This document shows positions 7,060 to 63,767 of a stretch of 64,000 nucleotides of DNA, piece after piece. Source of the stretch: Asterias amurensis (taxonomy: Eukaryota). Where the stretch lies: positions 19,654,621-19,718,620 of the forward strand of contig NC_092661.1 in assembly GCF_032118995.1 (NCBI RefSeq), given 5' to 3'. Made by a program: the position numbers and the translations under genes. The notes beneath the pieces were generated by a model that was given only the letters and a program-made list of their open reading frames with translations, was not told where the DNA came from and did no database searches. The first letter of the stretch is position 1, and every line of letters begins with the position of its first letter.

Positions 7060-8134
7060 CTTGAAATTTACAACAGGAAAAGACATGATAGACAAAATTG
7101 TACAAATGAAATATTACACAGCTCAACATGAGAGATACAAATACAGCAGTGAGAAACACTACTTAAAACAAAGGTGCAAGCAATACTATACAGGCTATAT
7201 TATCCTATCAAATGCAGACCATGAAATTAATACAAAATCAAATATAATGACTAAACCACCAAAGCGAGCAACTCAACGTTAGGGACGAGTTTTAGAATTG
7301 CTTTTTGGTAAAAAATAAAATGGAAGGGAATAATTAGTCTCCAATCAAGTCACAAATTAACTGGAATGTCACCATCGGTTACCTGAATCAAAGTGCGGGT
7401 GATTTTTACTTCCTAGAAAGGCATTTAGTTAGAGAAATAAACAGGCAATATTATTCAATGAGTTGAATAGCACATCTGACTTTAAAGTAATTAAACACAA
7501 CTTATTTCTGAAACAAAGTACAATATTCTTTTTAAAAACCTGTTTTTTTATCAAGCATAAAGCTAACCAGGGGCTTGTGTTTATCTGAGCACTGTATTTT
7601 CTTTAAAGTTGTAAATATTTATGCAGAAAATGTTCTTGGTATAAAACTATGTGATTACAATAAAGTGACAAACACACAGTAAGACCATGGTGGGATGCAG
7701 TTGTACAGTAAAGTGTCATGGTTGAGTGGTCAAGTGCACTGGAACCATGTTCTGGTTCATCAGAGTGCTTTCATGCTTTCTACCTCTCTTTTTATTTCTA
7801 TCCATCTAACTGTTTTTTGTTACACCAATATTTCTGTTACACCAATATTTCTGTTTGTGTGTTGTCATTTGTCTTTTCGAGAAAGACTCTGCCAGGGTTG
7901 AACAAAACCTGGTTTGCAGCTTGAAATAACACAATTTGTGGCATTAGCATACCATGTTAGACAAGAGTTTGATATGGACCAAGTAATATAAATGATAACA
8001 CTCTTGTTGCTATACGTATATCAACCAATCAAAATAAAGAATTAAAGTTTGCTTGAAGATAGTTATTATTGTCCTGCTTTCAGCATAACCCTGTTTGAAA
8101 AAGTTTCTTGTGGAACCAAGGTGAATTCTCTTAC

Positions 8135-8276
8135 CTGAAGAATTATCATCCCACTTGGAGAACATATCATCAAGAAGCTCATAGTCAAATGTAATGCAAT
8201 ACTTGTAATGCTCAGGTGGGTAGTCATTCTCCATCAAACACTTATTGAAAACCACCTCTGCAACATCTGCAAGAAA
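8135..8276 (-). CDS. TRPA1: TRPA1-like linker exon (DVAEVVFNKCLMENDYPPEHYKYCITFDYELLDDMFSKWDDNSSG)
   Basis: Aligns with vertebrate TRPA1 ECMKVLLDFCMLHSTEDKSCRDYYIEYNFKYLQCPLEF; acceptor tttcttgcag|, donor TCAG|gtaaga. A second copy sits at 60612..60743 on the plus strand. Confidence 0.75.
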
Positions 8277-8547
8277 AGCAAGATGCACACTTATAAATAA
8301 AACTTATAAATAAATCTTATCTTATCTTATCTTCTCTTCTCCATCAAACACTTATTGAAAACCAACTCTGCAACATCTGCAAGAATCTACACTTATAAAT
8401 AAAACACATTTCCAAAGGCAGTAAGGGGTAGGGGCCTGGGGAGTCCGCTTGGCAACACCTAATATCAGTAGGTATCTGTTTTATAAAATGTTCATCGAGA
8501 GGAAAAGGAGAAACAATGATACCATTTTAGGTTGGTGGATTTCTTAC

Positions 8548-8669
8548 CTGGCATCTTCTTGATAAGTTTCCTCATTGGAGTCAACCTCATCTTGGTATAT
8601 TTATCCTTACTAACTGAGCACATTGCATGAAGCCAGTTCTTCAGGCCGATAATAGCGAGGGCAACATTC
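8548..8669 (-). CDS. TRPA1: TRPA1-like post-ankyrin linker exon (NVALAIIGLKNWLHAMCSVSKDKYTKMRLTPMRKLIKKMP)
   Basis: Aligns with vertebrate TRPA1 EVVLTIIRSKRWDECLKIFSHYSPGNKCPITEMIEYLPE; acceptor ccatttgtag|, donor CCAG|gtaaga. Confidence 0.7.
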
Positions 8670-9051
8670 CTACAAATGGAAAAAGATAAAATGGTTGAAT
8701 GAGAATTCTTGAAGTAATCCAACCATCTCCACACAGTTGCAACTGTGGAAACTCTGATAAAAATAATGTCAACGTGATATTTCAAGTAAACAGAAGTATA
8801 TAAGATTTGAGGCATTGCATGGTGAGGCATCAATGTATATTTGGTTTGCAGTAACACCTTGTGTATATCTACTTGCCAGGTAGAGTTTGTTCTTAGGGAA
8901 CTGTCTTTCTTTATTATACTACCATGGAGTAGATTTACCAGAAGTAGATTTATCAGAAGTAGATTAAACAGAAGTAGATTTATCAAAAGTAGATTAAACA
9001 GAAGTAAGTGCAAACTTTTGTTGTTGTTGGATGTAATTTATTCAAACATAC

Positions 9052-10775: not shown

Positions 10776-10849
10776 AGAAGCGTCACAGAATGAGGATGCT
10801 TGCTTTGAACTGAAACGCATTGTACGTATAAGTAATAACAATCAAATGG

Positions 10850-11170
10850 CCTCTAGCCACTGGGCTAGCTCAGTGGTCTAGTGGTAAGACATCTGCTCTA
10901 GCAGTGTAAAGGTCATGGGTTTGAATCCCACCCGAGTGATTTGCCAACACATAGGATTCAAACTTCCTCTAGCCACTGGGCTAGCTCAGTGGTCTAGTGG
11001 TAAGACATCTGCTCTAGCAGTGTAAAGGTCATGGGTTTGAATCCCACCTGAGTGATTTGCCAACACATAGGATTCAAACTGCCTCTAGCCACTGGGCTAG
11101 CTCAGTGGTCTAGTGGTAAGACATCTGCTCTAGAATGCAAAGGTAGTGGGTTTGAATCCCACCTGCGTCA
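10850..11170 (+). repeat. Three tandem copies of a tRNA-derived SINE head (gggctagctcagtggtctagtggtaagacatctgctctag…ggtttgaatcccacc)
   Basis: A/B-box-like tRNA motifs without a valid cloverleaf; a ~113-bp unit reiterated; related copies at 5396-5480, 12480-12560, 40200-40480, 56290-56470, 60115-60190. Confidence 0.7.
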
Positions 11171-20100: not shown

Positions 20101-20851
20101 GTTATATTAATTGTATTGTAGATCACACTCAATGACTGTGTTTTCTTTTACAAACTGTTTGGTTAGTTTCTATCGAAAGTCACTTTTCCAGTCATAAGGA
20201 TTTTCAAAAATTCTTATCAGATTTCATTTTGGCTTTGGGGTTGTCATGGTTACTTTTTATTTGTGATATAATCAGAATTGATCCCTTGCACGCACGTCAC
20301 ACGCGGCGACTGTGCCACGCTCACCAAATTGGAGGGCAATAGGTTTAGGTGTAAACGCTATGTGGCCTAAAATGCGCACTTCTACCTTACATACACCCCA
20401 ACCACCGCTATCCCAACCCCGACCACGCCCCCACCAGCTTTCCCCAGCCTGCTCCATGAATATCATACAATAATACAGTAATGACAAGAATCACACAAAA
20501 ATTCCATTTAATATAAAAACTAATTCAAATCACAATATGGTTCAAAATACTTTTTTAAGCCTCCTGGGATAGGCCTACAAGGGGTTACCTACTAATTGAC
20601 TGGGTCGATGGTCTCGCAGCTGGTATGAACAATTATAAAGTGTTGCTGCACAGAAAAATGTGTGTTCCAAATGTGTGCAGTGAAACTGTTTTCGGTTAGA
20701 TATGCTTTAAAAATAATAATCAGTCAATTTTCCAAAGCAGACTGCCCCTTTTTCATTCATTCAAAAAACAAAATAGCATCTTTTATGATTGCTTTCGGTA
20801 ACAAATGAGTGAATAAATTTAGTTTATTTATTATGCATATATGATATATAC

Positions 20852-21505
20852 CTGATGTATACTGATGAGATTGGCAAGATCTTCAATACTTTCAGATGCT
20901 GCCAGTCCTCCTCCTAGACCATCTGCAGCATCCAGCTCTGCCTGTGTAGGCCAGTTACGAGCATAATTTTTGGCTCTACGATTCGAATCATCATCACTAT
21001 CTCCACTTCCATGCTGTCTCTGCCATGCACTCATCTCCACCGTGTCTTCACGGTCCAGTCCGCCGTTGAATGTCGGCATATTCCCGGTAGATGATGACAC
21101 GGATGCTAACCTGTTGTCACTACTCCTCGGGGAGCTCTCGCTGCGTGATGGCGATGGCGACGGGGCAACCTTACCAGACCTCACTGTTGACACTCTAGTC
21201 GGTCTTAAATCCACTTTACTTATGCTTGCAATACTACCCTTGGACGCAGAAGATCGTATTTCAGAACTACTAGAATCCTTGGCAGTTAGCCAAGCCTGAG
21301 TAATGGATTGTTTTCTTGATGTGTTTCCGGAAACGTCGCCAAAATCACCGGGAAGATCGTCGTCATCGACGGGTGCCGCGTAGGCGATAGGTGGTAGGTC
21401 CTTTGCTGCTTCGGCCACAAGCAATGCCTCTGTGTCACTGTCACAGGAAAGATCAGAGATAGGGCAATTTCCTTTATTATCGTCCTGTGAGAATATCTGG
21501 CTCAT
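20852..21505 (-). CDS. TRPA1: TRPA1-like channel, coding exon 1 (Ser-rich disordered N-terminus, MSQIFSQDD...ISIHQ); donor CATCAG|gtatat
   Basis: 218-aa ORF from ATG, ends at a canonical GT donor, phase-compatible with the next ankyrin exon (…IHQ|AARDGEVETMRRYLE). Confidence 0.5.
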
Positions 21506-22361
21506 GACCTCTGCTGCTGAATATTCAACGGCTAGTTGTTATAAATAAGGCGTGCCACTGCCAGCTAAACATAACACGATTATCTTATATCTTTCTCTAT
21601 GGTAATATGTGACACCAACATGATAGCGAATTTACTCAAGCGTTAAGTTATGAGGGTCATTGATTGGCAACCTGCACGGGACACCTGCACTGGGTACTGT
21701 AGTTGCACTCTGGACCTTTGCTGCCAACGTCATAGTTAGACTTGACCCAGTCTACCATCGTTTATCAACTCGTCTCTTTTGTGTGCCCCCACCCCCCCCC
21801 CCCCCCCCCCGGATTATGGTATACAAACTTAGAACTTATATTTAAAATAATAGACAAAATGTTTCGCAAATTGTCCCAATCCTCCATAATTTCACAACCC
21901 ATTCAACTATTGTGGACACCGCACTGTTTAGTGTTTCCATTGAGGTATTGTGTTACCATGGAGAACAAAGGCTCATCCAACTTGACCTTCACAATAAAAG
22001 CTCAGGGTAACTACGGGAAGAAGAACAAAATTTAACGTATTAATAATTGTTAATTTTAGCTGATGAAAAGGACAATCTATCAATAGTTGTTCCATAAGTT
22101 TAGTTTCCAATGGAGGTAGAAAAAGACAATAGCCAGGTTTAAGCCCTAAAATGCTCGGCCATCATTCATTAATCTAACCTGTGAACATTTAAATGGATCA
22201 GTTAATATGTCCACGTATATAGAGGAGAGGAAGAGTAATCTGTTAGAAACAGAAACGTTTCTCACATTGAAATGTTTTTTAATCCCTCTCTCTGAAGTTA
22301 TCATGGTCATTATTTTTCGGAGTAAGAAGGCTAATTAGGCAAATTGTGGCAAGTATAGTTT

Positions 22362-22742
22362 TTAAGACAGTGGACACTATTGGTAATTGTCATGTAAAAG
22401 ACCAGTCTTCTCACTTGGTGTATCTCAAGATATACATAAAATAACCAACCTGTGAAAATTTGAGCTCAATCGGTCGTCGAAGTTGCGGGATAACAATGAA
22501 AGAAAAAACACTCTTGTCACACGAAGTTGTGTGCTTTCAGATGCTTGATTTCGAGACCTCAAATTCTAAATCTGAGGTCTCGAAATCAAATTCGTAGTAC
22601 TGCTTTCTCGAAAACTATGTTACTTTAGAGGGAGCCATTTCACGACGTGTTTTATACTATCAACAGCTCCCCATTACTCGTTACCCAAGGTTTTATGCTA
22701 ATAATTATTTTGAGTAACTACCAATAGTGTCCACTGCCTTTA
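22362..22742 (+). mobile_element. MITE family 2 copy (TIR ttaaaggcagtggacactattggtaatt; central hairpin gatttcgagacctcagatttagaatttgaggtctcgaaatc)
   Basis: One of five copies in the window (22362, 41938, 52379, 53639 reverse, 63036 reverse). Confidence 0.8.
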
Positions 22743-25583
22743 ATTATTAGAAACATTTACGTTCCACCATATACATCACCCTCAATGCAGGTTCCTTTTT
22801 TTTTTAGTTCCCTCTTTTGACTCGAATGGTTTCTCAAACTAGACACTGGTTATTAGTTTCTATTTGTTTTGCTGAACCCTTATCTTACCTGTGTGCTTTG
22901 TGACCTCTACCACCGCGAGCCACCCTTAGAGGTCTCAGGATGACTTCTTCATCTTCCTCCATTATCACACACGAAATTGCCTCCTCGTCTAAACAAGAGA
23001 ATTACTCTAGAGTGAAGTACAACATCCTTCCCACAGCATGGTGTCTTTATTAACAAACCACTATTTATTAATAACTTGATATGATACCAACAAGTGGATT
23101 TTGATCACTCAGCTCATCTTGGTTTGGAGTGAATGAAGACGATGAGGTGCGGAAAGATGAATCTCCACTCGCTATAAGTAGCGTGTGAAGGCATGCACTA
23201 TGTGGGTGTTTCTCCTTATTATCCTCAGTGTGACGTTGTCTCAGCATCGCACACATATTTTATCTCATTTCGCTTGATTTACAGAATGTTCGCCCTCAAT
23301 GTGAAGGTTAATGCTTTCGGCAAGTTCACAATCAACATAACCATGTACATTATTCATTCCTCTGAGTCAGTTAGTACATAACGAAATGCAGTCTCTTTGA
23401 GCAAATTGTCCGCACACGACAAGATAATGTACAGCTTATGAATTGGCCTAGAAACTACCATCCTCAAGAGTGGTGTCAATCGCACCCTTGCACTCGCCAT
23501 TATTAGCCTGCCTCCCTGCAGTTACCATAGCAACTCTATTGATATGATGCCGCTGAGATGATTAGGATCGCAATTATGGCAATAATGACACCATCCACTG
23601 TGGACAGTTATCTTTGGAAAAAAACATCCTGCACTAAATGCAATAAAATCATATGACATTTAATATAATCGTGATACAGTTTACTTATGGGAGTCATCTA
23701 GAATCGCTTTTATTACATTTGGATGCTTGCTGCACCTAAATAATATTGAGGCCAAAGTGTTTATGCCTCGTTGACGATGGCATTTATACCGATAGGCCTA
23801 TTTGAGGTGAAATGCTTTCAATATGTTATGATTATAGTTTATTCATAGTTTGGTTTAACTCATACTCTCGTTTTCAATTCTGCATCATTCAACCATAAAT
23901 AAATCTTTAGCCGTCACGTTTAGGTTATTGATTTGAAGTTGAAACATCAAGAAATGGTGTTTGTATGTGTGGTTTTCATCGCGTTGTCAGGCTTATTTCG
24001 ATGGCGGCAATCGGAATATTTAAAGGAGGTTTTTGGGGCCCTCAATTACTTTTCTGACTTCACTTTTGATCTGACGAGAACATTTGCCAGAGAAATTAAG
24101 TAGTGGGCGTTCAGATTGGAGCTAACCATATTTTGGGGGTTTATTTTAAAACTATACATTTTTTCATGGTTTCGTGGGCGCCCGATTAGCCACATCGTCG
24201 CGTTATGTTAATTGATTTGTCAACTGGGCGTGGTTATTTGACCTATTTAAAATGGAGCAACGACACAACATGAATTACTAGTTGGCCTATAATATGTATA
24301 GCATTGTGCTTATGGGGATGAATCATACAGCTATAGCTCTATGGGGTGAATAGAAACATTTGTGTACTTGCTTCCAAGTGTTCTAAAAATATTGATAAAA
24401 AAAAAAGTTGATTTAGGATAGCAAAACTGAACAGTCGGAAAATTCAAAACAATCAAATTGTCATCCTATGTTAAACGTATGCAACAATGTGTTTTATTAA
24501 CAAATAATTGGGAGAAGTCAAAATAATAATCCAAAGTATGATAAATAAATTTGACAAATTGCAGGTCAGCTGCTAATAAGTTTTATTCACGCTCACATTT
24601 TAAAACACGGCCAAAAAGACAAATTTATGTTAATTCACACATGATGGTCAAAATGGTATAAAAACCTTTTATTCTAAAACAAAGCACACTTAGTGGTGTT
24701 CGATTGGTTTTGGGAAAGAAAAACGCTAAATACCGTTCCAGTATAGTCAACAGCATACAACATAGTTTAAAAACCTTTGCTATAAAGCCAGGTTTTCATC
24801 AAGACTATTGTGCGTTTTCAAATGTGTAAAATTAACTCAAACTTGGCGACATTTCAGATGGAAACACTTTAGTATTGGCAGGTAGAACACTTTTATGAAG
24901 TTTGTTAAAAGAAAACTTTCAAATGTTGTTTTACCAGCCAATAAAAATAAACATACAAGTATTTAGTGGTTTACAGTAAATGTTAATAAATCACTAGCTG
25001 TCAGGTGGAAACTAACTGTAATGTAATAAAATGTATTAAACTTAAACAAGTCCTTACACTTTCACTGACTTTAACACACACATAAATTTACTTAGAAACT
25101 GTTACAACAAAATGGTTATTGTGAAATTTGGGACATAATCATAAAATATTAAAGTACAGCAAAATTTATTTCTTAAAAATATTTAAAGAAGGTATCTTTG
25201 AAAACACTACGCAAACATGTTGTGTGTTTTGCTCCAGCAGTTTTTCTACGGGATACCACCCACCCAACCAGTCAAGTTCCAACACTCCACGGTTATGCTC
25301 TTTTTGAAGATTCATCTCACATTGACAGATACCATACTATCATGCCAAGAAATCCTCTTCATGATTTGTACAGACTTGTGTCAATGAGAGCCCACACATT
25401 TGTCGTAAGTCAATGTTCCCTGTGCAATGAAATGTAAATCCTGCATTTCTGACCGACAGGTATTAGTATATTATTGTACAGATACTATTCTACTATGAAC
25501 CAATTTCCTAGTGTAACCTCCAACACACTTGTATGAGGAATAGTAAGAAGAAATACAAAGTCACTGTCTACAGTCTTTATCAA

Positions 25584-35689: not shown

Positions 35690-36760
35690 CATATCTATTA
35701 ACCCTCCTTGTGCTGTTTGTCCTTTCAATGTCATTCACTGTGGTTTGGAATGATAGATGAAGTAGAAGTAGGTCTTCCTGCAATATGATATCATGTCCAT
35801 TGTCCACAAAGCTCTAAATGGCAAGGCTCCCCACTATATTTCTGAACTGCTTCAAGTTTACACTCCATCAAGGAATCTTCGATCAAGTTCCATGCTTCTC
35901 CTCATTGAACCCAAGTCTCGACACTCATGGGGTGACAGGTCTTTTTCTTCAGCCGCCCCACGCATCTGGAACTCTCTACCACTTAATCTTCGATCTTGTG
36001 TTAGTACCGCAAAATTCAAGTCTCTTCTCAAAACTTATCTTATGTCACAGGTTTTCAATGACTAATTTTGTTGTGTCTGTTTTTCTTTGTGTTGTGTTTT
36101 GTTTTTGTTTTGTTTTTGGTTTTTACTGCGCCTTGAACACCCAGCAGGGTGGATATGTGCGCATTACAAGTCTTATTATTATTATTATTATGTATTGAAT
36201 GTATCAATGCAGTACATAGTCAACCCTCCTACTGTCTGATCATTAAATGTCATCCACTGTGGTTTGGAATGATGGATGAAGTATGTCTTCCTGCAATATG
36301 ATATGTGTTGAATGTATCAATGCAGCACATAGTCAACCCTCCTACTGTCTGATCACTAAATGTCATCCACTGTGGTTTGGAATGATAGCTGAAGTATGTC
36401 TTCTTGCAATATGATATCATGTGTTGAATGTATCAATGCAGTACATAGTCAACCCTCCTACTGTCTGATCATTAAATGTCATCCACTGTGGTTTGGAATG
36501 ATAGATGAAGTATGTCTTCCTGCAATATGATATGTGTTGAATGTATCAATGCAGCACATAGTCAACCCTCCTACTGTCTGATCACTAAATGTCATCCACT
36601 GTGGTTTGGAATGATAGCTGAAGTATGTCTTCTTGCAATATGATATCATGTGTTGAATGTATCAATGCAGCACATAGTCAACCCTCCTACATTTCAACCA
36701 CTAAATGTCATCCACTGTGGTTTTGAATGATAAATAAACTGTATAAGCCTGGTATATGAT
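35690..36760. repeat. Tandem repeat, ~120-bp unit ×~5 (…gtcaaccctcctactgtctgatcattaaatgtcatccactgtggtttggaatgatagatgaagtatgtcttcctgcaatatgatat…)
   Basis: Direct periodicity; SEC63 intron 9; interrupted by the SINE insertion. Confidence 0.85.
35793..36200 (+). mobile_element. SINE-like element with an (ATT)n tail, inserted into a 120-bp tandem-repeat unit
   Basis: Carries the widely dispersed pseudo-ORF motif …PSRNLRSS…GDRSFSSAAPRIWNSLP…FKSLLKTYL typical of Deu/CORE-type SINEs; interrupts a repeat unit between …gatatcatgt and gttgaatgtatc…. Confidence 0.55.
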
Positions 36761-37031
36761 GTGGTGAATGTATATCTATACAGCACACTGTCAACCCTCC
36801 TACTGTAATGCAATGTTTTGTAAGGCGCATAAACTAGACCACTCTGCAATATGATATGTACACAGTTAGTTCCATGCCTAGTTGTGCCACCATACACAAC
36901 CCTTGCTGCTGAATGGTTTTAAATGGTGGGTCAACTTAGTGGAAATGTTACACAGAGTAGGAGAGTTTTAATTTGAGATGACTTGACTATAAGGATGTAC
37001 ATGACATAACTGTTTTGTGATGTGTGTTTAG

Positions 37032-40129: not shown

Positions 40130-40575
40130 TTTTACCCATACACCGATGTGTGTTAGCACTGTATATTCAGTACTTTCCCGAGTCCTGTGAAAAATAAAAA
40201 TCACAGGCATGTTACTCGGGTGGGATTCGAACCCACGACCCTTGCAATTCTAGAGCAGTGTCTTACCAACTAGACTACAAAGGTTGCCCGGTAGCTGGAG
40301 GCAGTTTGAATCCTATGTTTTGGCAGTGGGTACCGCAACGATATAAGAGATGTTAAATTTGCAGGTACCCGCTGCCAAAACATAGGATTCAAACTGTCTC
40401 TACCTACCGGGCAACCTTGGTAGTCAAGTTGGTAAGACACTGCTCTAGAATTGCAAGGGTCGTGGGTTAGAATCCAACCCGAGTTTACATGCCTGTGATA
40501 TTTTTTTACAGGACTCGGGAAAGTACTGAGTATACAGTGCTAACACACATTGGTGTATGGGTAAAAACAAAAATT
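40130..40575. repeat. ~440-bp near-perfect palindrome built from two head-to-head tRNA-SINE copies
   Basis: Left arm 40130-40335 is the reverse complement of right arm 40365-40575, with very few mismatches; SEC63 intron 16. Confidence 0.85.
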
Positions 40576-41702: not shown

Positions 41703-41937
41703 GTCAGTTTGTAAAACTTACCCTTAGATTTTTTTTTGTCAACAAGTTCACCAATTTGCTTATAAGTGTTTGCATCTATAGTTGAGATGTTATGCAAAAT
41801 AAATTTTGAGTTTTGTTGATACGCCTTGACGCCAAAGAAGAATGATCGTTTGTTGTGTATTCTTTCCGGAAGTGCATGTCGGATTCAAGGAGTTCAACAG
41901 TGACTAACATGGTTGAGTATTCATTTTAGATGGTGAC

Positions 41938-42328
41938 GGTTTTTAAAGACACTGGACACGATTGGTAATTATCAAAGACTAGTCTTCCCGCTTGGTGTAT
42001 CTCAACAAATGCATAAAATAACAAACTTATGAAAATTTGAGCTCAAACGGTTGTCAAAGTTGCGAGAAAAAAATGGAAGAAAAAACACCCTTGTCACACA
42101 AAGTTTTGTGCTTTCAAACGCTTGATTTCAAGACCTCAAATTCTAAATCTGAGGTCTCGAAATCAAATTCGTGGAAAATTACTTATTTCTCAAAAACTAC
42201 GTTACTTCAGAGGGAGCCGTTTCACACAATGTTTTATACTATCAACCTCTCCCCATTACTCGTTACCAAGTAAGGTTTTATGCTAATAATTATTTTGAGT
42301 AATTAACAATAAAGTCCACTGCCTTTAA
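41938..42328 (+). mobile_element. MITE family 2 copy (SEC63 intron 18)
   Basis: Same TIRs and internal hairpin. Confidence 0.8.
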
Positions 42329-42439: not shown

Positions 42440-43019
42440 CATTTTTTACCAAGAGAAGATATTAATAGCATATTTGTATCTCTCTGTTGCCGTGACAGTG
42501 ATGATAATAAAGGAAGATATTAATAGCATATTTGTATCTCTCTGTTGCCATGACAGTGATGATAATAAAGGAAGATATTAATAGCATATTTGTATCTCTC
42601 TGTTGCCATGACAGTGATGATAATAAAGGAAGATATTAATAGCATATTTGTATCTCTCTGTTGCCATGACAGTGATGATAATAAAGGAAGATATTAATAG
42701 CATATTTGTATCTCTCTGTTGCCATGACAGTGATGATAATAAAGGAAGATATTAATAGCATATTTGTATCTCTCTGTTGCCATGACAGTGATGATAATAA
42801 AGGAAGATATTAATAGCATATTTGTATCCCTCTGTTGCCATGACAGTGATGATAATAAAGGAAGATATTAATAGCATATTTGTATCTATCTGTTGCCATG
42901 GCAGTGATGATAATAAAGGAAGATATTAATAGCATATTTGTATCCCTCTGTTGCCATGACAGTGATGATAATAAAGGGGATATTAATAGCATATTTGTAT
43001 CTCTCTGTTGCCATGACAG
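42440..43019 (+). repeat. Minisatellite, 55-bp unit ×~10 (gaagatattaatagcatatttgtatctctctgttgccatgacagtgatgataataaag)
   Basis: Each unit reproduces the SEC63 exon-19 acceptor (ccatgacag|TGATGATAATAA); only the last copy opens a reading frame. Confidence 0.9.
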
Positions 43020-43161
43020 TGATGATAATAACAGCAGCGATGGTGGAGAGCAAGAGGAAGAAGAATGGGAAAGGTTACAGTCTGGGATCACAAGGAAAGA
43101 GAAAGTTCTAGAAGGAACATCTAAGACTTCTCATGAGGTCCATTGTCCATACTTCCCGGAG
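43020..43161 (+). CDS. SEC63: SEC63 exon 19 (DDNNSSDGGEQEEEEWERLQSGITRKEKVLEGTSKTSHEVHCPYFPE)
   Basis: Matches …EAEWQELQQSIQRKERALLETKSKITHPVYSLYFPEE; the acceptor is the last copy of a 55-bp tandem unit. Confidence 0.75.
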
Positions 43162-48382: not shown

Positions 48383-48451
48383 ATGGAAAAACTTAAGAAA
48401 GTCTTGAATGGAAAAGAAGAAGAGGAGGATGAGCAGGGTATCGTGACACAG
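48383..48451 (+). CDS. SFT2-domain vesicle transport protein (SFT2D1/2-like), exon 1 (MEKLKKVLNGKEEEEDEQGIVTQ)
   Basis: Matches vertebrate SFT2D1 [21 protein letters not shown]; donor ACACAG|gtttgt. Confidence 0.8.
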
Positions 48452-50803
48452 GTTTGTTTGGATTACATTTTATGTAGTCAACCAACCAGTTCGTAAAAAC
48501 AATTTGGCAGCTGTCGTTGTATTTATACTAGTCATATATAGTACACACGCACTTGCACTTGCAGCTATGTTGAACATTGATTATTTAATGAATGTGTGTT
48601 TCTCGTGGTTTCATGTCAACCAGTTGGCATTAGTAAAATAGGAAAATAAATGCCAAACCAATTTTTCTTTAATATATGCTTTGCATGGGCTAAATAATGT
48701 TCACTACTTTATATCAGGTGAGGTATGACAATGTCAATGAATGACATAAAATAAATAACCCATTGATTGAGTCTTTTGACATTATCATGACATTAACGAC
48801 ATGACTGACGTTTTTTTTGGATAACTGAAATTATTTCATATCGAATGAAAAAGTGGTGGCGCCACACAGAAACTCTCTGTACTGACTGTGTCAACCAGTA
48901 ACATGAGTTGCAATAACTAATATTAGCCTATAAAATAAGTGTAAAACCCCCATTCTTCCCTGGCCTATGGTGAATCAATCGAAGGGTTGGTTGTGATGAA
49001 TTTTCAACATTTTGGTGGGGACCAAGGCTGTTTGAATTCATGCTAAACTTTACAACTAATGTGTCATTTGTTTTTGTTTTGTTTTTATGTTATTTTTTCC
49101 CATGGATACATTTGTCACGGAGTGATATAAGTTTTTTAAAGAATTACTTAAGTTTCCTCAGTTTGCTGGCCATTATGTATAATACAGGAAGAAACAAGGT
49201 TTTAAATAGTTATGGCCAAAGCGCCGCCATCATGACTTGGCATTTTCTTTTCATTGTGTTCAAGTTCTGTAAAGGTTAGTAAACTTTTGGGGCAGTTTAA
49301 AGGTTCTGATTGGCCAAGAAGGCATCAGACCAATAGCTCTTTTATGTTAAAGGTTTGGAATGCGTGCAAGTCACGAGATCTTACAGCGGGAAGTTATTTT
49401 GTGTTAATTTAAGGGGAACAGAAATTTAGGTGTGTCACTTTGCATTTTGAGATTCCCGAGGAGAGGACTCTGTCAGCCTCGACGATCGAGTTATTGAGAA
49501 CTCCTGTATTTTGCTTATGGGTTATTGAGAGCCCTAAGTATACAGTCATCCAGCCTTAGTTGCTGAGTTTTTGCAAAAGCAGTTTATTCTGGCGAGTGAG
49601 ACACACCGAAATTTTGTTGAAGAGATCCGCCACTGTAGAAACCAGGATCGACAAATCGACCTGTAAGTAGCTATTGATAATGTTATTTATTTCAAAGAGA
49701 TTGTGTTAATGAAATTCAGTTTTGTTGTATTTAATTGTGGAACTTCTTCTCAATAGAACTGTGATTTACTTTGATTTAATTGTTCGAGGAAGTCGTGAAA
49801 AGAAAGTTTTGTACATAGCATTGATTTGAATTTATGCGTTAAAGATGGAAGTGCGTTGTCGAACTTCCGTAAAGAAAACATTGATCATAAGTTGATAATG
49901 TGCTATTTTACTTTAAGTTTTGTAAATGTAGATTTGGGTTTATTTGCTTATTGCAGGGTTTTTCCCACACCACACTTGAAGTTGATGTGCTAAACTGAGG
50001 GCTAACAGAAGGCCGGGCAGAGATACGACCCAGTGCCAAAGACTAATCTAAACTTAAAGAATACTCGAAAGACGTGATGGGAGTGATGTTAAACTAGGAA
50101 CCGAAAGAGACACACAGAGAGAGCAAGAGAAGATTGTAATATTAACCGGCAACCATTATTGAAAGTCATTGATAGGACAACGTTTATTTTATTAATTTTG
50201 TGAAGACACACTTAATGTAAATTGTAAATAAATCTGTATATTTTCTTGTAAATACAAACTTGTTTCCCTTGCCTTCAATTCTCTGTTTGTCCAACAACTA
50301 CCGAAGGTCATGGCCGCCGAGGTCGGGGAAAGACTCGGGGCATGACAACATTGTAGTTTGACAGGATTAGGAATAACAGAAAAATACATGCAGTTGCTGA
50401 CCAAAAGAAAATTCTGCACACAATTTTAATTGTACTTAGTACTTAACAGTACAGTAGAACATGTGTGTGTGTCATTCATACATATTTTGTATGAAATATG
50501 ATTAAGAGAAGTAAAGTGGCTCTTGATTCAGGATACCTTCAGCATGTTACCTGCAATAACCACACTCATTTTTTTAAATGTCAGCCAAGTTGGTCAGTAT
50601 ATTTCTGATGTGTGTCTAGACAAATCCACACTGTATTAAACACGTTCACTCCATTGGCTCAAATGTCACAAAACAGACTGCCACAAAAAGCCACCCACAA
50701 GTCACGTGCCAGTATCTATTAAATAATAATAATAACATTAATTTTTATTGTCTAGCAAAGCTAGCAAAGCTAGCAAAGGTAGATTTTAACAAGCCTGTAT
50801 TGT

Positions 50804-50900
50804 TTGACACCAGATTTATGAGGGGTCTTCGTTGAGCTGGTCTACGAGACTGAAAGGGTTCGTTATCTGCTTTGTGCTTGGATGTCTCCTGTCTGTATTG
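50804..50900 (+). CDS. SFT2D-like exon 2 (IYEGSSLSWSTRLKGFVICFVLGCLLSVL)
   Basis: Matches [28 protein letters not shown]; acceptor gacaccag|, donor TATTG|gtgaga. Confidence 0.75.
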
Positions 50901-51059
50901 GTGAGATATTCTCAACTGTTTTTGTTGTAACAATCTTTTAACAAATCAATAGTAAACATTCCACCATCTTTCATTATTCATAAACAGATGAAAAATCCAA
51001 AACATCCTTGCGAGAACACGCTTGTAAATTAACTTGAGTGTAATCTTTTGCAAAGTGTT

Positions 51060-51770
51060 CTTTGGTGAAAAAGAAATGATAAGTTTTTAAATTCAACCTT
51101 TCAAAGAAAGTCGTATAGCTTTTTGCAGTTTATTTATAATGACTCAATATGATAGTTCTTAAATTGTTGGCGTGTCATGGTAGAGTGGTTAAGAGCACTG
51201 GATTCAAGCTCTGGTGTTTCTGATCAGCAGAGTGTTGGTTCGATTCCCGGTCGTGACACTTGTAACCTTCAGCAAGATACATTACCATGATTGCTTTGTC
51301 ATTCAGATGGGACATTGAATCGTTGGTAGTGCACACAAAAAACAGAACACTTATCAAGAAAGATTAGGGGTTAACCCTGGTGTTTCTGTTTGACATAGCT
51401 GTGATTGAAATACCGTTTATTATTATAGCAACCTTTCAAAGAAAGTCGTATAGCTTTTTGCAGTTTATTTATAATGACTCAATATGATAGTTCTTAAATT
51501 GTTGGCGTGTCATGGTAGAGTGGTTAAGAGCACTGGATTCAAGCTCTGGTGTTTCTGATCAGCAGAGTGTTGGTTCGATTCCCGGTCGTGACACTTGTAA
51601 CCTTCAGCAAGATACATTACCATGATTGCTTTGTCATTCAGATGGGACATTGAATCGTTGGTAGTGCACACAAAAAACAGAACACTTATCAAGAAAGATT
51701 AGGGGTTAACCCTGGTGTTTCTGTTTGACATAGCTGTGATTGAAATACCGTTTATTATTATAGCAAGCAC
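51060..51770. repeat. Tandem duplication, ~335 bp ×2, each containing a tRNA-SINE fragment
   Basis: Identical 60-aa artefact ORFs at 51175-51357 and 51510-51692; SFT2D intron 2. Confidence 0.85.
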
Positions 51771-52378
51771 CCTTGTTTACAGGTTTCCTCAGGCTTACAA
51801 GCTACAGTGAATATGTTCATTTATGAGGTATCCTTGGTTTTAATACCAGAAATGTGTTTACCATACTATTATTAAAGAAAACTGAATTGTAGTTCCCAAA
51901 CCATCACTGATGCAAGTTTACTCAAACAATTTCAAAAGTGCTAAACAACAAAGAAAAAAACAAGTCATTGTTTGTTTAGATCCATGATTTAAAGATGAGC
52001 GTGCTAGAGTTTATCTGACATTGTGAACTTTCCACCACCTGACAGTCCACTGTAGCATTGATATTCCCAACGTCCAGTAACATCAAGTTATTTGCTGTGC
52101 TCTACTCATTTGGTAATCTCACAGCAATGTCAGGGTAAGTACGGAGGTAGCAGCATTCTTTCCTGGTGGCTTGACTGTGTTGCTTGGAATAGCTGCTGTG
52201 GTTCCTGGTGGCTGGGTTTAATTGCTTACAATGATTTGAACTAGCAGCCTTAATTTCTGTTTTGTTTTGTTTGTTTCTATTATATGCTGCCAAAACAACA
52301 ATTGTTGTGCATGCATGACTGCACATTAATTAGAGCATTATATACTAACTTCAAACCACTTTATTATTATTAACCACT

Positions 52379-52738
52379 TAAAGGCATTGGACACTATTGG
52401 TAAATGTCAAAGACCAGTCTTCTCACTTGGTGTATCTCAACATATGCATAAAATAACAAACCAGTCTAACAGTGAAAATTTGAGCTCAATTGGTCGTCAA
52501 AGTTGCGAGATGAAGGAAGTCAGATGCTTGACTTTGAGACCTCACAAACTTATTCTGAGGTCTCAAAATCAAATTCGTGGAAAGATACTTCTTTCTTGAA
52601 AACGATGTTACTTCAGAGGGAGCCGTTTCTCGCAATGTTTTATACTATATCAACCTCTGCCCTTAACTCGTTACCAAGTAAGGTTTTATGCTAATAATTA
52701 TTTTGAGTAGGTACCAATAGCGTCCACTGCCTTTTATG
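52379..52738 (+). mobile_element. MITE family 2 copy (SFT2D intron 2)
   Basis: Same TIRs and internal hairpin. Confidence 0.8.
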
Positions 52739-53638
52739 TTTGCTGTGTAAGTTTTTACATTGCAATTTCTTCACAATAACTGACATCTAACATGTATTTT
52801 CTATTTCTTTCTTTGCACAAGTAGTTGCTTCATCTTTTCACTGGCAAGCTTTTAGACAAAGAACAGGAGTGGTAGTTATCGCCGCAATAAACAAATTAGT
52901 TTCAATCTGACGGCTCACTGATTCTTACCAGCACCAACTCTCCGGAGAAATTTGTCCGACTGAATTCATTAAAATCCAGAGAAAGGCATTGAAAGACCTC
53001 CTAAACCACTGCTGCTTATTTTGATTGCCATAATGGAAATGAGCCCAATGTGAATTTGCACAAACAATCAATGATAAAGTGTACACCAATTTTTTCTCAC
53101 TTTTTTATTTTCTGAAACACAAATTTTTTTGAATTTTCACAAGTTGTTTGTATAGTTTAGGCCTGTTGTCGCATGGAGGCCCCAAAGTTCACAGCCAGAC
53201 TTTTCCCATGGAAATGCTTTCTGCAAATGAAATTGGGTCTGCCCTACCCCTTTACAGATGAAATTCCAGGCATGCTGGTGTGATTGTTATAAACTAAGAG
53301 TCTGGGAAGGGAATGTATTTTCCTGATAACCATGGTGATGATATTTAGCTGATTTATATTGTTCCATGCACGGCTTGCTTTGAGTTTTTACTTTCAACCA
53401 ACAGACAATTTTTAAAGGTGGGATCATCGTTTGGTTTTTGTGAACAAAATACCTACTTATAGCCAAAATATTACAGGAACTCACCTATTAAACATCAACT
53501 GAAAACAGTGCTTCCTTGCAGAGAAAACAGCAACAAAAAGTGTTACAATATTTTCACATGAACATCAATTCCTGAACATGACAGTTTTTTGGATAGCAAT
53601 CACATTTCTGGTAACGGCATGCTTGAAAGAACAACAAC

Positions 53639-54027
53639 CTTAAAGGCAGTGGACACTTTTGGTAATTACTCAAAATAATTTTTAGCATACAACCTTACTT
53701 GGTAACAAGTAATGGAGAGCTGTTGATAGTATAAAACATTGTGAGAAATGACTCCATCTGAAGGAACATAGTTTTTGAGAAAGAAGTAATTTTCCATGAA
53801 TTTGATTTCGTGACCTCAGATTTAGAATTTGATGTTTCAAAATCAAGCATCTGAAAGCACACAACCTCGTGTGACAGGGGTATTTTTTGTTTCGTTATTA
53901 TCTCGCAACTTCGACGTCCAACTGAGCTCAAATTTTCACAGGTTTGTTATTTTATGCACATGTTTAGATACACCAAGTGAGAGACTGGTCTTTGACAATT
54001 ACCAATGGTGTCCAGTGTCTTTAAGAA
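53639..54027 (-). mobile_element. MITE family 2 copy, reverse orientation
   Basis: Same TIRs and internal hairpin. Confidence 0.8.
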
Positions 54028-54274
54028 ATCTGACAGACGGTTCAGGCATGAACTGTTTCTGAGATTCGAAAGTTTTTATTGATTAATGAGAGCACTTCAA
54101 ATGACATAATTTTGCAGCATGCTTTTCTACTATTAACATCTTTATAAGAAGAAAGTGTTCAGATAGAAATTACCAAATGATGACCCTTTCTTTAAAAACT
54201 GAAATGTGGGTGTTGCATGAAGATACTAGTCATTTTGTTATTTTTTTGTTTGTATTGGTTATCCGTGTACACAG

Positions 54275-54363
54275 GGTAGCATGTTTCTGTTCATCTCCTT
54301 TGGCACAGGGCTAACTCTCTTTGCTGTCTGCTACACCTTTGGTACTCTCTTTAGTTTAATCAG
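54275..54363 (+). CDS. SFT2D-like exon 3 (GSMFLFISFGTGLTLFAVCYTFGTLFSLI)
   Basis: Matches [26 protein letters not shown]. Confidence 0.75.
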
Positions 54364-55069
54364 GTACCTTAAGTTCAGTCTCATGTTTGTAAACCTTGAA
54401 GAAAGTATTGAAAGTCAGGAAGTCGTGTCAAGAGAAGTTGATCCAACTTGACTGCATTCGTTTTATTCCCACTTAAGTGACATTTTTTTAAATGGAAAAA
54501 CCCAACCCACTTGCAAAGCTCCAGTCCGGGCTCAAACAGAGTGTAAGGCATGGAGAGAAGCCAGCGTACCACCCTGACTGCCCAAATGCATTTTCCATAT
54601 TGATCACAACTTGAAGCAAGCAATTTAATTCAAGTTTGTCAATAGCACACTGTTTGAAATGTCAAGACTCTACTATATCGAACACTGGTTCTGCTCAAAA
54701 CACACTTTTAAAGGGATTTTATTGACATGGTTCTTACAAGGGTCCAATTTCATAAAACTGTTAAGCATAAAATACTGCCTAGCAAACTTCTTTTTTGCTA
54801 AGCAAAATATGAGTGGGGCAACAGTTGCAAACATTGTACAGTCTTGCTTTGTCATTAGCTCAGCAAGATTTGTCTGTGCTTTAAGGCCTTATGAAATGGG
54901 ACCTGTTAACCTACTTTTGATAGCTTGAAGAATTTGTGAAATCTGCTCACAATTCTTCACTCCTAAGCATTCAAATTTAACGCTGCTATTACAAATAAAC
55001 AAAACACTGATCTTTTTGGCTAAGAATTTTAAAAGTTTATTTTATAAATGACGTTCTTTAATTGTATGA

Positions 55070-55240
<171 letters not shown>

Positions 55241-55505
55241 TGATTTCTTTTTACAGCGCAAATGGCTGGTTAGCATATCTAGCTATATACATAGAGAAGG
55301 AAACTCGATCACTCATTCTCTTTCTCTTGGCTTTGCTTTGGGAATGTAGATTGGATGAAGGTGTTCCTCCTCTGGTACATCTCTAGTGACTGACAAGGCC
55401 TATATGCAAAATATGCAGTTCTTGTGACATTACCTTTTCACTATGGCCTTTATAGTTGCACCCACTTTATATTAACTGTTAAATGTTTGTGCTCTTTCAT
55501 TTCAG

Positions 55506-55564
55506 TGGGGGGTAGCTATTTTGGCAATAGTGTTTTGTGTCCTACAGTTTCTGGCGTTGATATG
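55506..55564 (+). CDS. SFT2D-like exon 5 (WGVAILAIVFCVLQFLALIW)
   Basis: Matches GLAVLFCILQFLSMTWY. Confidence 0.8.
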
Positions 55565-56639
55565 GTGAGTGTGTGACTATATATTCCCTCAGGTTTTGTT
55601 TAGTTGTATTTCATTCCTAAAGCTCTAACATGCATTGTAACCGATGAAGATTGTTTGCAAACTGTTGCCTCAGCTCCTAGTGTTGTACTAACCAAGTCAA
55701 CCAAAAAATAAATAATAAAATGAAAATTTTCAAGAGCATTTCACTTCTATCAAATTTTTACAAAATGCCCATTGCGATTTGTGTTCTCCAATATTTAGTT
55801 CAGAAAAGGTCATATTCTGGAATCTACATTCATGCAAATTGCTTTCTTATTAACTCCGAGCTCAGAAATTCTATTACCTTGAAAAAAAAACACCCCACAT
55901 TGTTCTCAATCTCAGTATTTTCCTCAAGATTGGACCCAGAGAGATTATGAAAAAAAATCCTTTTGTTCAGTTAGAACATTCATCAGGATTTGGAATGTTC
56001 AAACCCTCATCTGTTATGAGCTTGGTACAATGCTTCTTTCTCATGTTGCTTTTCTCCCGGCCAAATGAGTACCTAATCACTTTTCGTCTTTTCAGACCAT
56101 CTTACGCATAAGCCAATAAGATACCTTTAATTAATTTTGCATCAATCTCCTCTAGTTCATGTTAGATGACCTGAATCTAATTTAAAAACCTCCCATTGTG
56201 TTCGTGAGCAAGAATATAATGTAATAAATCTAATTTATCAAGAACAGACAACAAGGGAAACTGACTGAACTAATACATGTTCAGCAATATTGGCTTCTTG
56301 TCACTGGGCGCACTCGGATGTCTAGTGGTTAAGACATCTACTCTAGAATCCAGTATTGTAACTGGCTTCTTGTCACTGGGAGCACTCAGTGGTCTGGTGG
56401 TTAACACACCTGCTCGAGAATGTAGGGGTCCTGGGTTTGAATCCAAGCCGAGTAGTTTGACATTAGACTTTTTCACAGTACCCAGGAACTGCTGATTATA
56501 GAGTGCTTATCACACATCGGTATAGGGTAAAACACCATGACAATATACCTAACGATATGTCAAACTAGCTGTGACATGTTTGGTTAAATCAACCCCTTGC
56601 CATTGTTTATCTTACATTTATTTATTTAATCTATTTCAG

Positions 56640-56712
56640 GTATTCATTGTCGTATATCCCATATGCGAGGGACGCAGTGACTAAATGTTGTCGTGGATGC
56701 TTGGATGTTTAA
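56640..56712 (+). CDS. SFT2D-like last exon ([23 protein letters not shown])
   Basis: Matches the vertebrate SFT2D1 C-terminus [21 protein letters not shown]; stop TAA. Confidence 0.85.
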
Positions 56713-59600: not shown

Positions 59601-60611
59601 GACAAAGTGACAATATTTTTATCGTCTGCTAAACTCTGCTTTTACGAAAACATTGTTAATTTCTGAGAGATTGTTTGCACAATTCGTCCTGGTCCAACGA
59701 CAGTTTGGTGTTTCATTGTAAGTAGAATTTACATAGTGTGATTCAGGAGTCAATGTAGTTACGTTTGACGAGTTTATTTCGACAATGAAGTAGCGAAAAT
59801 CTGGTTTTGTTTTGTGGCCGAGATGCACCACACTACAGTCATGACAGTGTTACACACTGACATTGTTACTGGTGTAAGCTAGATCGTAGATGCCTATATC
59901 GATATATTAATATTTGCATTCTTGAATGACTTAAATTGCTACATAAACATCTATGGTTACTTGTCAGTCAAAGCCTTTTCAGCATCTAGAAAAGGTGAGA
60001 AGACAATGTAGACATTTCATTTTTAGAAGTGGGAGGAAAACCCCAGAGAATTGTTCCAGGGAAAACCCACGCAGTCAAGTAGGGACTGATGAAAAACCCA
60101 ATCCACGTGATAGTGCCCGGTTAGGCATGGTAGGATTCGAACCGGGGTCCCCAGAGGTGGAAGGCGAGGCTAGACACACCACTGCGCCAACCTGACTTCC
60201 AAGAAGTTTCTTTTTTGTGAAATTCTTTTTTGTCATAATGAAAGGGGTTTCCATTTTTACAGCTGTTGTCATTTTCCAAGTTGCTTGCTAAGTCCAAGTC
60301 CAGCCTTTGTTTATTTAATTGTGATGTAGGCCTATTTTTGTACAGGACTGTTGTACTCAGTGTTGTGCTTGTTGGGAAAAAAATGGTTTCTTGCAATTTG
60401 CACAGATAGAGGCCCAGGGTTAATATACAAAGATTAAGATAACACAATGAAGAAACTGGTTCTCCTTTTCCTTCTGGGGAAAGTTTTTATAAAACACATA
60501 CCTATAGGCCTGTTGATAGTATAGGTGTTACCAAGCAGACCCTATGCCCCTACACCCCATTTTGAAAATGTGTTTTATATTTATTAATAGTGCATATTGC
60601 ATTTCTTGCAG

Positions 60612-60743
60612 ATGTTGCAGAGGTGGTTTTCAATAAGTGTTTGATGGAGAATGACTACCCACCTGAGCATTACAAGTATTGCATTACATTTGACTATGAG
60701 CTTCTTGATGATATGTTCTCCAATTGGGATGATAATTCTTCAG
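60612..60743 (+). pseudogene. Isolated duplicate of the TRPA1 linker exon (…DVAEVVFNKCLMENDYPPEHYKYCITFDYELLDDMFSNWDDNSSG) with intact acceptor and donor
   Basis: About 96% nucleotide identity to 8135..8276 (minus strand), including ~25 bp of the upstream intron; flanks diverge immediately downstream; no other TRPA exons found nearby on the plus strand. Confidence 0.6.
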
Positions 60744-61249
60744 GTAAGATTCCTGTCATAAGGCTGTATCCGGATCCATGATACAAACTCATTTTGAGTA
60801 TTATTTTTTAGAGTCTCAGCCCCCATCAGATTGTGTACATTGCACTAAGATTTTCATATCACCGTAGACCTAAGTTTTATTGGACTACATATGGCTTGCT
60901 GCTTGGTTTACCTTTTCCCATAATTAATCATTTGTTGGGAGTTAAACATTGTTTGGATTTCTCAGTTTTTAATGGTTTCCCCTTTTAAATTGTTAACAGT
61001 AAGCCTTGGCCATTTGTGTGTTTCTTTACAATCAATTATGATTTGCTAATAGTTAAAGCTTAAAGTGAATATTCTTTAATCAAAATTCCCCTGGCAATGT
61101 CTGATCAATGGATTTGTTGAACTATGTAACTCTAGAACCAAGGTTGAGTCTCTGATTAGCTTTTGGTTTTCATGTTATTTAGCAAATTTATCTCAATGAT
61201 TATGTACCGTATCCATAACAACATTTTGAAATCACTTTTTGAAAAGCCT

Positions 61250-61645: not shown

Positions 61646-63035
61646 CAAATAATTTTGTTCATTGGGTGCCAAGAGAAGGGGCAAGTTTCGAGCACCCTCA
61701 TGCTCAGAGCTCAATGCAAATATTGAGTCCCTGTCACCTGCATTATAACTTACTCATCAGAGGTCAGGGATTCACCTGAGATCATTAGGTTTAATTTGTG
61801 GTATGGCTACATCTTACAAACTGCTCTACCACACCCCCCCCCCCTCCTCTCGCAGTCTCTCTCTCTAATGATGTGATTCTGCAACTGTACTAAGATGCAT
61901 CATTGTGAATCTGACTTACAACAGAACATTATCAATTGTTAAACAAAAGTAATTATGCTTCCCTCTCTAAATATTTGAAATCGGTACTATCTGTCATATT
62001 TATCACAGGTTGGTCTTGCTGATAACAAAAAGTTGAGGAACCAGTCAAGTTGAACTGCCTTGTTATGTAGGTAAGTGAAATTAATAACTGATATGATTGT
62101 GAAGTAAAATAAGACATGTGTCCATAATAGACTGGTGCTTTGTCAACAATGTCTTTAGTATCAATTTAGAAACCACAAGGGAAACTTGTACATTTGAAAT
62201 ATTTGAGGTTGAACAAAGAAAAACTGACTAGTGGGATTTGAACCAAACATAAAGTTTACTGCGCCGGCACTCTTTAAACTGAGCTATCTAACCCTTGACA
62301 GTCTCCCTATTTTGTCAACTTGGTGTACATAACTTCCAATTTCCAAATCGATCAGAACTTTAACTATATTTTCTATGTAATTGTAATTCGTTGTTTACTG
62401 GTTTTTCTCAATTATTCATTCCTTAGTAGGCCCTATTTGGTGTTCTGCTTTTCAATGTCTTAACATACAAATAGTTGATGAATAATTGATGGGGTGTAAA
62501 AAATAAAGGTCGTGAAGAATACGGGTTAAAGGTCTAGAGGAAGTTGCGGAGTAAAGGTCATGAGGAGTTTGGGAGTAAAGGTCAAGAAGAATTCGTTGGG
62601 GTAAACAAAAAACTCTGTCCCAAAATTATCTTGATTTTCTGAGGTATTTTATTCTGTTCCTGAGTTCTTTAAAAATTATGCTCCAAGGGTATTATTCATC
62701 CAAGGGACTTGCTGTAATAACAATGTATGGCTTATCAAAATACTTTCAATCGGCTTGCAACCCTGACTTTTTTTTTATGAGATTGGTGAATTATGATTTC
62801 TGCATAATAAGCAAAACTTTTAATTACTAAAATTTGTCTTTCTACAATCTCTCAAACACTTGTGCAAAGCTGTAACATGCCATCGTGCCAAGGCTTATGT
62901 CTTTTTTTTTACGTTAGCACTGCTGATAATATGTCGTACAATTAAAAAAATTCACATTTTATTTAATTAAATTTGAAGAATTTTAGCGCCGAAATTATAC
63001 AAAACTACCTTTTATGTTTGATATTCTTAGCCTTT

Positions 63036-63422
63036 AAAGGCAGTGGACACTATTGGTAATTACTCAAAATAATTATTACAATAAAACCTTTCTTGGTGAC
63101 GAGTAATGGGGAGAGGTTGTTGATGGTATAAAACATTGTGAGAAACGGCTCCCTCTGAAGTGCCATAGTTTTCCATAAAGAAGTAATTTTCCACGAATTT
63201 GATTTCGAGACCTCGGATTTAGAACTTGAGGTCTCGAAATCAACCATCAAACGCATACAAGTTCATGTGACAAGGGTGTTTTTTCTTTCACTATTATCTC
63301 GCAAGTTCGATAACCGATTGAGCTCAAATTTTCACAGCTTTATTATTTTATGCATATGTTGAGATACACCAACTGTGAAGGCTAGTCTTTGACAATTACC
63401 AATAGTGTCCACTGCCTTTAAA
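63036..63422 (-). mobile_element. MITE family 2 copy, reverse orientation
   Basis: Same TIRs and internal hairpin. Confidence 0.8.
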
Positions 63423-63767
63423 TTTGAAAAATTTAAGCACCGAAAATATACACAACCATGTTTGATATTCTTAGCCTTTAAGATGGGTCACCAGTTACGA
63501 TGGCTGTTGACATATGGAATTACGGGAAGATATAATTGCATTAGATAACCTCGTAACGTACTGTAAAGTGGTTCCACAATGTACCGAATAAAATGCGTTC
63601 CTCGCCGTTTCTAACATTATCAAATTTGTCTTTCAAGAGATGGAAAGAAAAGATCATTTGAATTGTTTGTTTAAAGTGGTTCACTGTACGTGACGTCAGA
63701 CGTTAATCAATACTCTCCCCGCGTGCAATACTATAAGCTCCTTTGCAGTAGTAGCCCTGACCCCGAT

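Follow-up and report, generated by a model that had tools for sequence, protein, structure and literature searches.

The closest described systems are the human pairs CYP21A2/CYP21A1P and GBA1/GBAP1. In these textbook cases, an unprocessed pseudogene is homogenized with its parent gene by interlocus gene conversion. In Drosophila TrpA1, exons 10a and 10b are mutually exclusive, and exon duplication is documented in this region of the gene (PMC11471635). We describe a locus of Asterias amurensis in which one exon of a TRPA1-like gene recurs in inverted orientation. The second locus is probably an old, inverted, unprocessed pseudogene fragment, with an exon tract that was lately homogenized with the gene by interlocus gene conversion.

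The window is the whole stretch of DNA that was analyzed, 64,000 nucleotides of contig NC_092661.1 with a G+C content of 37%. It contains part of a TRPA1-like gene on the minus strand. The ankyrin-repeat exons run from about 15600 down to 9045. They are followed by two linker exons, here called N-1 and N, and then by the S1-S4 exons at 273..5190, with S4 at 273..386. The gene runs off the start of the window, and S5-S6 lie beyond it. The functional exon N within the gene is named copy B, the partial tandem copy beside it is copy A, and the copy at 60.6 kb is copy C (Table 1).

The gene exons were joined into a composite protein. Its best named relatives are a Lymnaea stagnalis protein, with 44% identity, and TRPA1 of Mytilus coruscus. 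Precomputed annotations list PF00520 and ankyrin domains for each of them. Solved TRPA1 chains also match the composite, with E values of 3.7e-38 for 7ykr and about 3e-37 for the human chain. Pfam Ank families match it as an N-terminal ankyrin array, and the six-transmembrane channel domain with TRPA1 similarity is represented in the window by S1-S4. The motif encoded by exon N is also found in the homologues P0004, P0007, P0008, and P0009, and it falls within the alignment to the TRPA1 chain 7ykr.

On the minus strand upstream of the ankyrin exons lies an open frame of 235 codons with many Ser, Asp, and Ala residues (20834..21538). It may be an N-terminal exon of the TRPA1-like gene or a separate gene. 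An intron of the TRPA1-like gene contains a minisatellite (1677..3853) with about 28 copies of a 78-nt unit at 93% identity. It has a higher-order period of 389 nt and long open frames on the minus strand.

The SFT2/Got1-like (vesicle-transport) gene lies head-to-head with the TRPA1-like gene. Further exons of this gene were placed near 50826, 54308, and 55090, with approximate borders. Its ORF at 55070..55240 matches Pfam PF04178 (E 3.3e-10). One of its introns contains a perfect 335-bp tandem duplication (51094..51766; 2.0 copies, 100% identity).

Table 1. Positions in the window of the TRPA1-like exon copies, the segments around them, and the neighboring features.
Feature	Position	Strand	Description
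Copy B, functional exon N	8135..8266	-	Encodes DVAEVVFNKCLMENDYPPEHYKYCITFDYELLDDMFSKWDDNSS, between the ankyrin repeats and S1
Copy B acceptor region	8267..8303	-	Second tandem unit; part of the B unit
Filler between tandem units	8304..8336	-	33-nt (GATAA)n-like sequence, GAGAAGATAAGATAAGATAAGATTTATTTATAAG
Copy A	8337..8405	-	Acceptor and first 40 nt of exon N (8337..8376), no donor
Exon N-1 of the TRPA1-like gene	8548..8669	-	Parent of the pseudo-exon at 60337..60457
SFT2/Got1-like gene	48383..56712	+	Nearest same-strand neighbor of copy C; ATG at 48383, last coding exon to 56709, then stop
C-type upstream flank	60217..60336	+	Common to copy C and L001; no significant similarity to the gene
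Decayed exon N-1 copy (pseudo-exon)	60337..60457	+	Aligns to 8676..8565; five indels, stops in all three frames
Intron-derived segment	60457..60589	+	Homologous to gene intron 8515..8399, between N-1 and N
High-identity tract, putative conversion tract	60590..60749	+	From the polypyrimidine tract (-22) through the exon to donor +6 (GTAAGA)
Copy C of linker exon N	60612..60743	+	132 nt, phase 1-1, open reading frame
C-type downstream flank	60750..60796	+	Unrelated to the gene's downstream intron; first 9 nt (TTCCTGTCA) identical in L001
MITE-like family copies	63034..63462, 53640..54024, 52378..52734, 41906..42328, 22360..22743	both orientations	

An earlier note, made from the sequence of the window, had reported that exon N recurs about 52 kb away on the plus strand together with its upstream intron flank and GT donor. 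The alignment bears this out. Copy C is identical to exon N at 131 of 132 bases, and the sole difference changes AAG to AAT and thereby K to N. By blastn, 60574..60749 on the plus strand aligned with 8302..8129 on the minus strand at 96.0% identity over 176 columns (E 1e-78). The range given in the note for the gene exon, 8135..8276, does hold the exon and runs 10 bases into the intron.

The two loci have intron flank in common, and identity is not confined to the exon. On the acceptor side, copy C and the gene have about 38 nt of intron in common, interrupted by 4 mismatches and 2 indels. At the donor, the common sequence is GTAAGA alone, and homology breaks off sharply at +7. Within the high-identity tract, the matches are 20/22 on the acceptor side, 131/132 in the exon, and 6/6 at the donor. 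Both splice sites of copy C are intact and identical to the functional ones. The downstream flank of copy C had no homology to the gene's downstream intron (z -0.8). An exact look-up of the copy C ORF in public assemblies returned nothing on record.

Copy C belongs to a fragment of about 0.4 to 0.6 kb that contains a dead exon N-1, an intron, and exon N. The earlier note had detected no neighboring TRPA exons at 60.6 kb, a statement overturned by the decayed exon N-1 and the homologous intron that are present there. One of its suggestions, that the copy is a degenerate paralogue, was essentially right, as all three parts lie in one fragment. The fragment spans 60337..60749 and is contained in a conserved block at 60217..60796. 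The 5' end of the original duplication is poorly defined.

The pseudo-exon had a local alignment score of 39.5, against 17.0 +/- 2.2 for shuffled sequences with a maximum of 23.5. Relative to the gene it lacks about 47 nt, which comprise the last 17 exon nt, the donor, and the first intron bases. The intron-derived segment matched the gene intron at 75-78% by blastn. Its global alignment contained 93 matches, 16 mismatches, and 32 gap columns, with 85% of the ungapped columns matching. Homology to the intron between N-1 and N extends over 60457..60611, which corresponds to 8515..8377. The fragment is thus unprocessed, and it is also disabled and incomplete, with lesions in the pseudo-exon and no further TRPA exon nearby. 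No other TRPA exon was found in 50-64 kb by tblastn with eleven exon peptides or by nucleotide local alignment with shuffle controls. In the nucleotide alignments, the ten other exons scored at the shuffle background and N-1 alone scored above it. A processed retrocopy is ruled out, because the intron is retained and intron bases are present on both the acceptor and the donor side.

Just upstream of the C-type block, 60100..60200 contains a tRNA-like B-box (GGATTCGAACC) and a GC-rich stem region. This segment, possibly a SINE inserted on the minus strand, had no match in Rfam or among the other repeats of the window.

Copy A is a second, partial copy of exon N within the gene itself. Its exon part is identical to the exon start at 39 of 40 positions, and its acceptor looks intact. 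The B unit (8303..8227) and the A unit (8405..8337) match at 66 of 69 positions, with one 8-nt gap. The earlier note had placed this partial copy at 8336..8400. The acceptor and exon start that it described are real and lie at 8337..8405, and the exon part measures 40 nt instead of about 50. A transcript spliced at the copy A acceptor would include a 242-nt exon, out of frame, with a stop after 16 codons. From its position 110 nt upstream of the real acceptor, copy A may act as a decoy and could be a source of defective transcripts. A mutually exclusive tandem exon pair was considered and rejected, given the frameshift and stop that follow from the copy A acceptor and the position of copy C, inverted and outside the gene. 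Neither copy A, which is incomplete, nor copy C, which is inverted and lies beyond the gene, can be an alternative exon of the gene. Templating of copy B from copy C was also rejected, because the copy B acceptor has the gene-type sequence TTTATTTATAAGTGT and not the C-type sequence ATTTATTAATAGT. Copy C is collinear with the gene minus the A/B tandem duplication. It therefore stems from a gene version in which that duplication was absent.

Related loci were retrieved from independent contigs. A protein search with the two linker exons returned three ORFs only, out of 5.8 billion proteins. When metagenome DNA was scanned for a conserved 22-mer, the sole informative contig was L005, L006 was a chance match, and no C-type copy turned up. 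The contigs were sorted by the sequence beyond donor +6. The window gene, the contigs of the SOLA series, and L005 are G-type, and copy C and L001 are C-type. A three-sequence comparison of the gene, copy C, and L001 gives branch lengths only and no topology, and the sharing of flanks was used instead.

L001 is a Logan assembly contig from another species. Positions 204..803 of this contig align end to end with 60217..60796 around copy C, including the upstream flank and the bases past the donor (TTCCTGTCA). The upstream flanks of copy C and L001 align with a score of 27.5 (z 8.9), and the corresponding comparison of copy C with the gene intron gave z 0.4. The downstream flank of copy C matches the sequence after the first exon copy of L001 with z 3.3. 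Further out, L001 1..203 and 885..966 had no homology to the window. L001 is probably orthologous to copy C, judged on flank similarity alone. It is disabled, with frameshifts and stops in exon N-1. Its exon N measures 140 nt and has lost the frame, with a 3-nt deletion and a rearranged 3' part. About the first 100 nt of this exon are conserved at about 90-92%, above its flanks.

L001 also contains a second tandem partial copy at 775..884, which covers the 3' half of exon N and lies about 110 nt after the first. It has its own donor and the same GTAAGATTCCTGT flank, and it is independent of the A/B duplication in the window.

L003, a marine-metagenome contig, contains the C-type upstream flank 60372..60611 at 94.7% identity, followed by the acceptor and the exon start. 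With C-type flanks in L001 and L003, the C-type locus exists outside this assembly. Its presence in another species makes it older than at least one speciation event. Since L001 shares these flanks and is disabled, the fragment is old and has not been maintained as a coding exon.

The gene locus was recovered at 95-97% identity from three marine-metagenome contigs of the SOLA series (L002, L004, and L007). They include the A/filler/B structure, with a slightly shorter filler, so this structure is no assembly error. L005 (JACSEG010043452.1) is a more distant G-type orthologue with 7 differences in 168 nt and the gene-type downstream flank GTAAGAGAATTC... It has a single exon copy joined directly to the intron, without the 5' partial tandem copy. 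The A/B duplication is therefore lineage-specific. The view that this exon is duplication-prone gains some support from the independent tandem partial copy of L001 and from the absence of the 5' partial tandem copy in L005.

L007 (ENA SOLA22-1 SAMEA7060540 scaffold_309020) is 99.9% identical to L002 until about nt 108 of exon N, and unrelated sequence follows. Its positions 733..1608 are 870 bp of AT-rich DNA without a match in the window. The junction may reflect a chimera, an allele with an insertion, or a further breakpoint within this exon.

The similarity between the gene and the fragment is unevenly distributed. Mismatches number 1/132 in the exon, 17/76 in the pseudo-exon, and 16/109 in the intron, and the pseudo-exon and intron alignments also contain many gap columns. 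The exon differs from the pseudo-exon (Fisher P = 1.3e-7) and from the intron (P = 1.7e-5), so the tract is significantly more similar to the gene than the homologous sequence that flanks it. The near identity reported in the earlier note is real. The note overlooked that the exon is far more similar than its flanks, a contrast that points to gene conversion.

Synonymous sites are consistent with this reading. Copy C and the gene exon have no synonymous differences over about 23 synonymous sites, and the single change is nonsynonymous. At an independent divergence of 20-30%, the chance of observing no synonymous difference is 0.005 to 0.0002. Long-term purifying selection alone does not account for the identity, given that synonymous differences are absent. 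The flanks and the exon tract also group differently. Across species the flanks group by locus, and the tract groups with the paralogue from the same genome, a comparison made on short contigs. Copy C has the base of the window gene at 5/5 exon sites where L005 differs. Every G-type sequence has AAG, encoding K, as does the second partial copy of L001. The AAT of copy C is therefore derived and arose as a later change.

These observations suggest the following history. A DNA-level duplication would have moved exon N-1, the intron, and exon N, in inverted orientation, beyond the SFT2/Got1-like gene to a position now 52 kb off. The fragment would then have decayed. Its N-1 copy would have gained indels and stops and lost its donor, and its intron would have diverged to mismatches at 15-24% of aligned columns with many indels. 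Much later, nonallelic (interlocus) gene conversion probably transferred the exon N tract from the working gene to the fragment. This conversion tract would be about 150-175 bp long. Its 3' end would coincide with the end of homology at donor +6, and its 5' end would lie within the polypyrimidine tract. Conversion would have made the tract nearly identical to the gene again and thereby repaired both splice sites. Copy C would since have gained one substitution (K>N). Taken from one assembly and a set of short contigs, the evidence suggests that conversion took place, that it ran from gene to fragment, and that copy C is without function. The conserved tract may nevertheless have a function at the DNA or RNA level.

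A different origin of the fragment was considered, as the remnant of a complete inverted TRPA paralogue with its other exons deleted. This reading concerns the origin only and leaves the conversion step unchanged. TRPA genes have multiplied in lophotrochozoans, as TRP surveys also indicate, and the fragment is old. Any exon of the same age as the pseudo-exon N-1 should still be recognizable, however, and none was found in 50-64 kb. The homology also ends sharply 6 nt past the donor. We consider a complete paralogue rather unlikely.

The fragment could also have been captured and carried by a transposon (Pack-MULE, Helitron, or similar), possibly with many copies genome-wide. It is small and includes intron sequence, the same fragment and flanks are found in a second species, and the region is rich in repeats, including the MITE-like family and tRNA-like elements. 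No terminal inverted repeats or target-site duplications bracket 60217..60796, however, and the window contains a single copy. Among 5.8 billion proteins there is one C-type ORF only (P0003, on the L001 contig), and the metagenome DNA scan contained no C-type copy. Transposon-borne capture therefore appears quite unlikely.

The repeats of the window were surveyed separately. The MITE-like elements form a dispersed family with lengths of about 390-430 bp, 77-85% identity, and members in both orientations. In the 63-kb copy, the two ends are inverted repeats of each other (63033..63068 versus 63388..63422). An Rfam scan of the whole window returned four tRNA-like matches only, none of them near copy C. 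Two lie in a 116-nt tandem array in an intron of the TRPA1-like gene, and two form an inverted pair near 40.3 kb. The matches at 10842..11163 and 40219..40486 pass the Rfam tRNA threshold and are probably the heads of tRNA-derived SINEs. Sequence related to these elements is also present at 56257..56462. Among the minisatellites, one has 10 copies of a 58-nt unit at 97% identity, and another has about 5 copies of a 113/229-nt unit at 89-92% identity (42455..43031, 36186..36806).

Under a further explanation, copy C would be a captured or functional exon, either spliced into a plus-strand transcript or acting at the RNA level, for example as an antisense partner that regulates the TRPA1-like gene. 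Both of its splice sites are undamaged and match functional ones exactly, and it is a symmetric 132-nt phase 1-1 exon with an open frame on the same strand as the SFT2/Got1-like gene. The better conservation of the first 100 nt or so of the L001 exon would also fit a function. Copy C lies 3.9 kb past the stop codon of that neighbor, however, outside any recognizable host intron. No coding exon was recognized around it among ORFs of at least 55 codons in 52-64 kb. The reading frame is not conserved between species, as the copy in L001 has 140 nt, is shifted out of frame, and is rearranged in its 3' part. The pattern of no synonymous and one nonsynonymous difference is the opposite of long-term coding constraint. 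Exon capture is very unlikely on this evidence.

The inverted copies at 8.2-8.4 kb (A/B) and 60.6 kb (C) could serve as substrates for nonallelic homologous recombination, and L003 could then be a real inversion junction. L003 runs from the C-type upstream flank through the exon start and on into sequence of the gene, namely the A junction, exon B, and the downstream intron. This is one of the two junctions expected from an inversion between the inverted copies. The contig passes through a 62-nt stretch that is common to both loci, and from GTGCATC on it is identical to the G-locus contig L004. L003 is more likely a short-read chimera across the exact repeat than an inversion junction, and the latter seems highly unlikely. 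If it were real, the inversion would break the TRPA1-like gene in two and amount to a structural null allele of a sensory channel that segregates in a wild marine population. The pseudo-exon would then matter as the partner that enables the rearrangement. More generally, inverted repeats could mediate inversion and are a possible source of defective sensory-channel alleles.

It is extremely unlikely that the assembly misplaced the 60.6-kb copy or that gene reads "corrected" a diverged paralogous site to near identity: there is a single assembly, its high-identity tract is inverted and short (about the length of a short read), and error correction with multimapping reads could in principle mimic a conversion tract, but the flanks of copy C recur in L003, which covers about the first 40 exon nt only, and on both sides in L001 (z 8.9 upstream and 9 bases past the donor), and simple overwriting by gene reads would not yield the private AAT of copy C, which is absent from the gene. 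The earlier suggestion of an assembly artefact is thus disfavored.

An old pseudogene fragment with a recently converted exon has practical consequences. Annotation should list the 60.6-kb copy as a pseudogene fragment rather than a TRPA exon or novel gene. Because the inverted tracts are nearly identical, read mapping, variant calling, and short-read assembly can go astray across this exon, and L003 may be an example. The locus appears to be a clean, small case in which a gene and a relic fragment evolved in concert, with gene conversion as an ordinary process.

Three kinds of known systems can be compared with this locus. As in exon shuffling or exonization, copy C is a symmetric phase 1-1 exon with intact splice sites outside its parent gene. 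In contrast to exon shuffling, no host intron or transcript was identified, and the copy in the second species is out of frame. Drosophila TrpA1 exon 10 belongs to the same family and appears to lie in broadly the same region, between the last ankyrin repeat and S1. Unlike exons 10a and 10b, copy A consists of an acceptor and 40 nt without a donor, and copy C is inverted and lies 52 kb away outside the gene.

The locus appears to behave like the human pairs CYP21A2/CYP21A1P and GBA1/GBAP1. It differs from them in that its fragment contains two exons only, is inverted, and is separated from its parent by another gene, and the direction of transfer is deduced. There is also no evidence here of donation from fragment to gene, unlike in gene/pseudogene pairs that exchange sequence. 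Like those pairs, it has a DNA-level copy with an intron, disabling lesions, and a short near-identical tract in otherwise diverged sequence. The copy also lies on the same chromosome, tens of kilobases from its parent. The feature is real and well explained, and it is a further instance of the known phenomenon of gene/pseudogene conversion.
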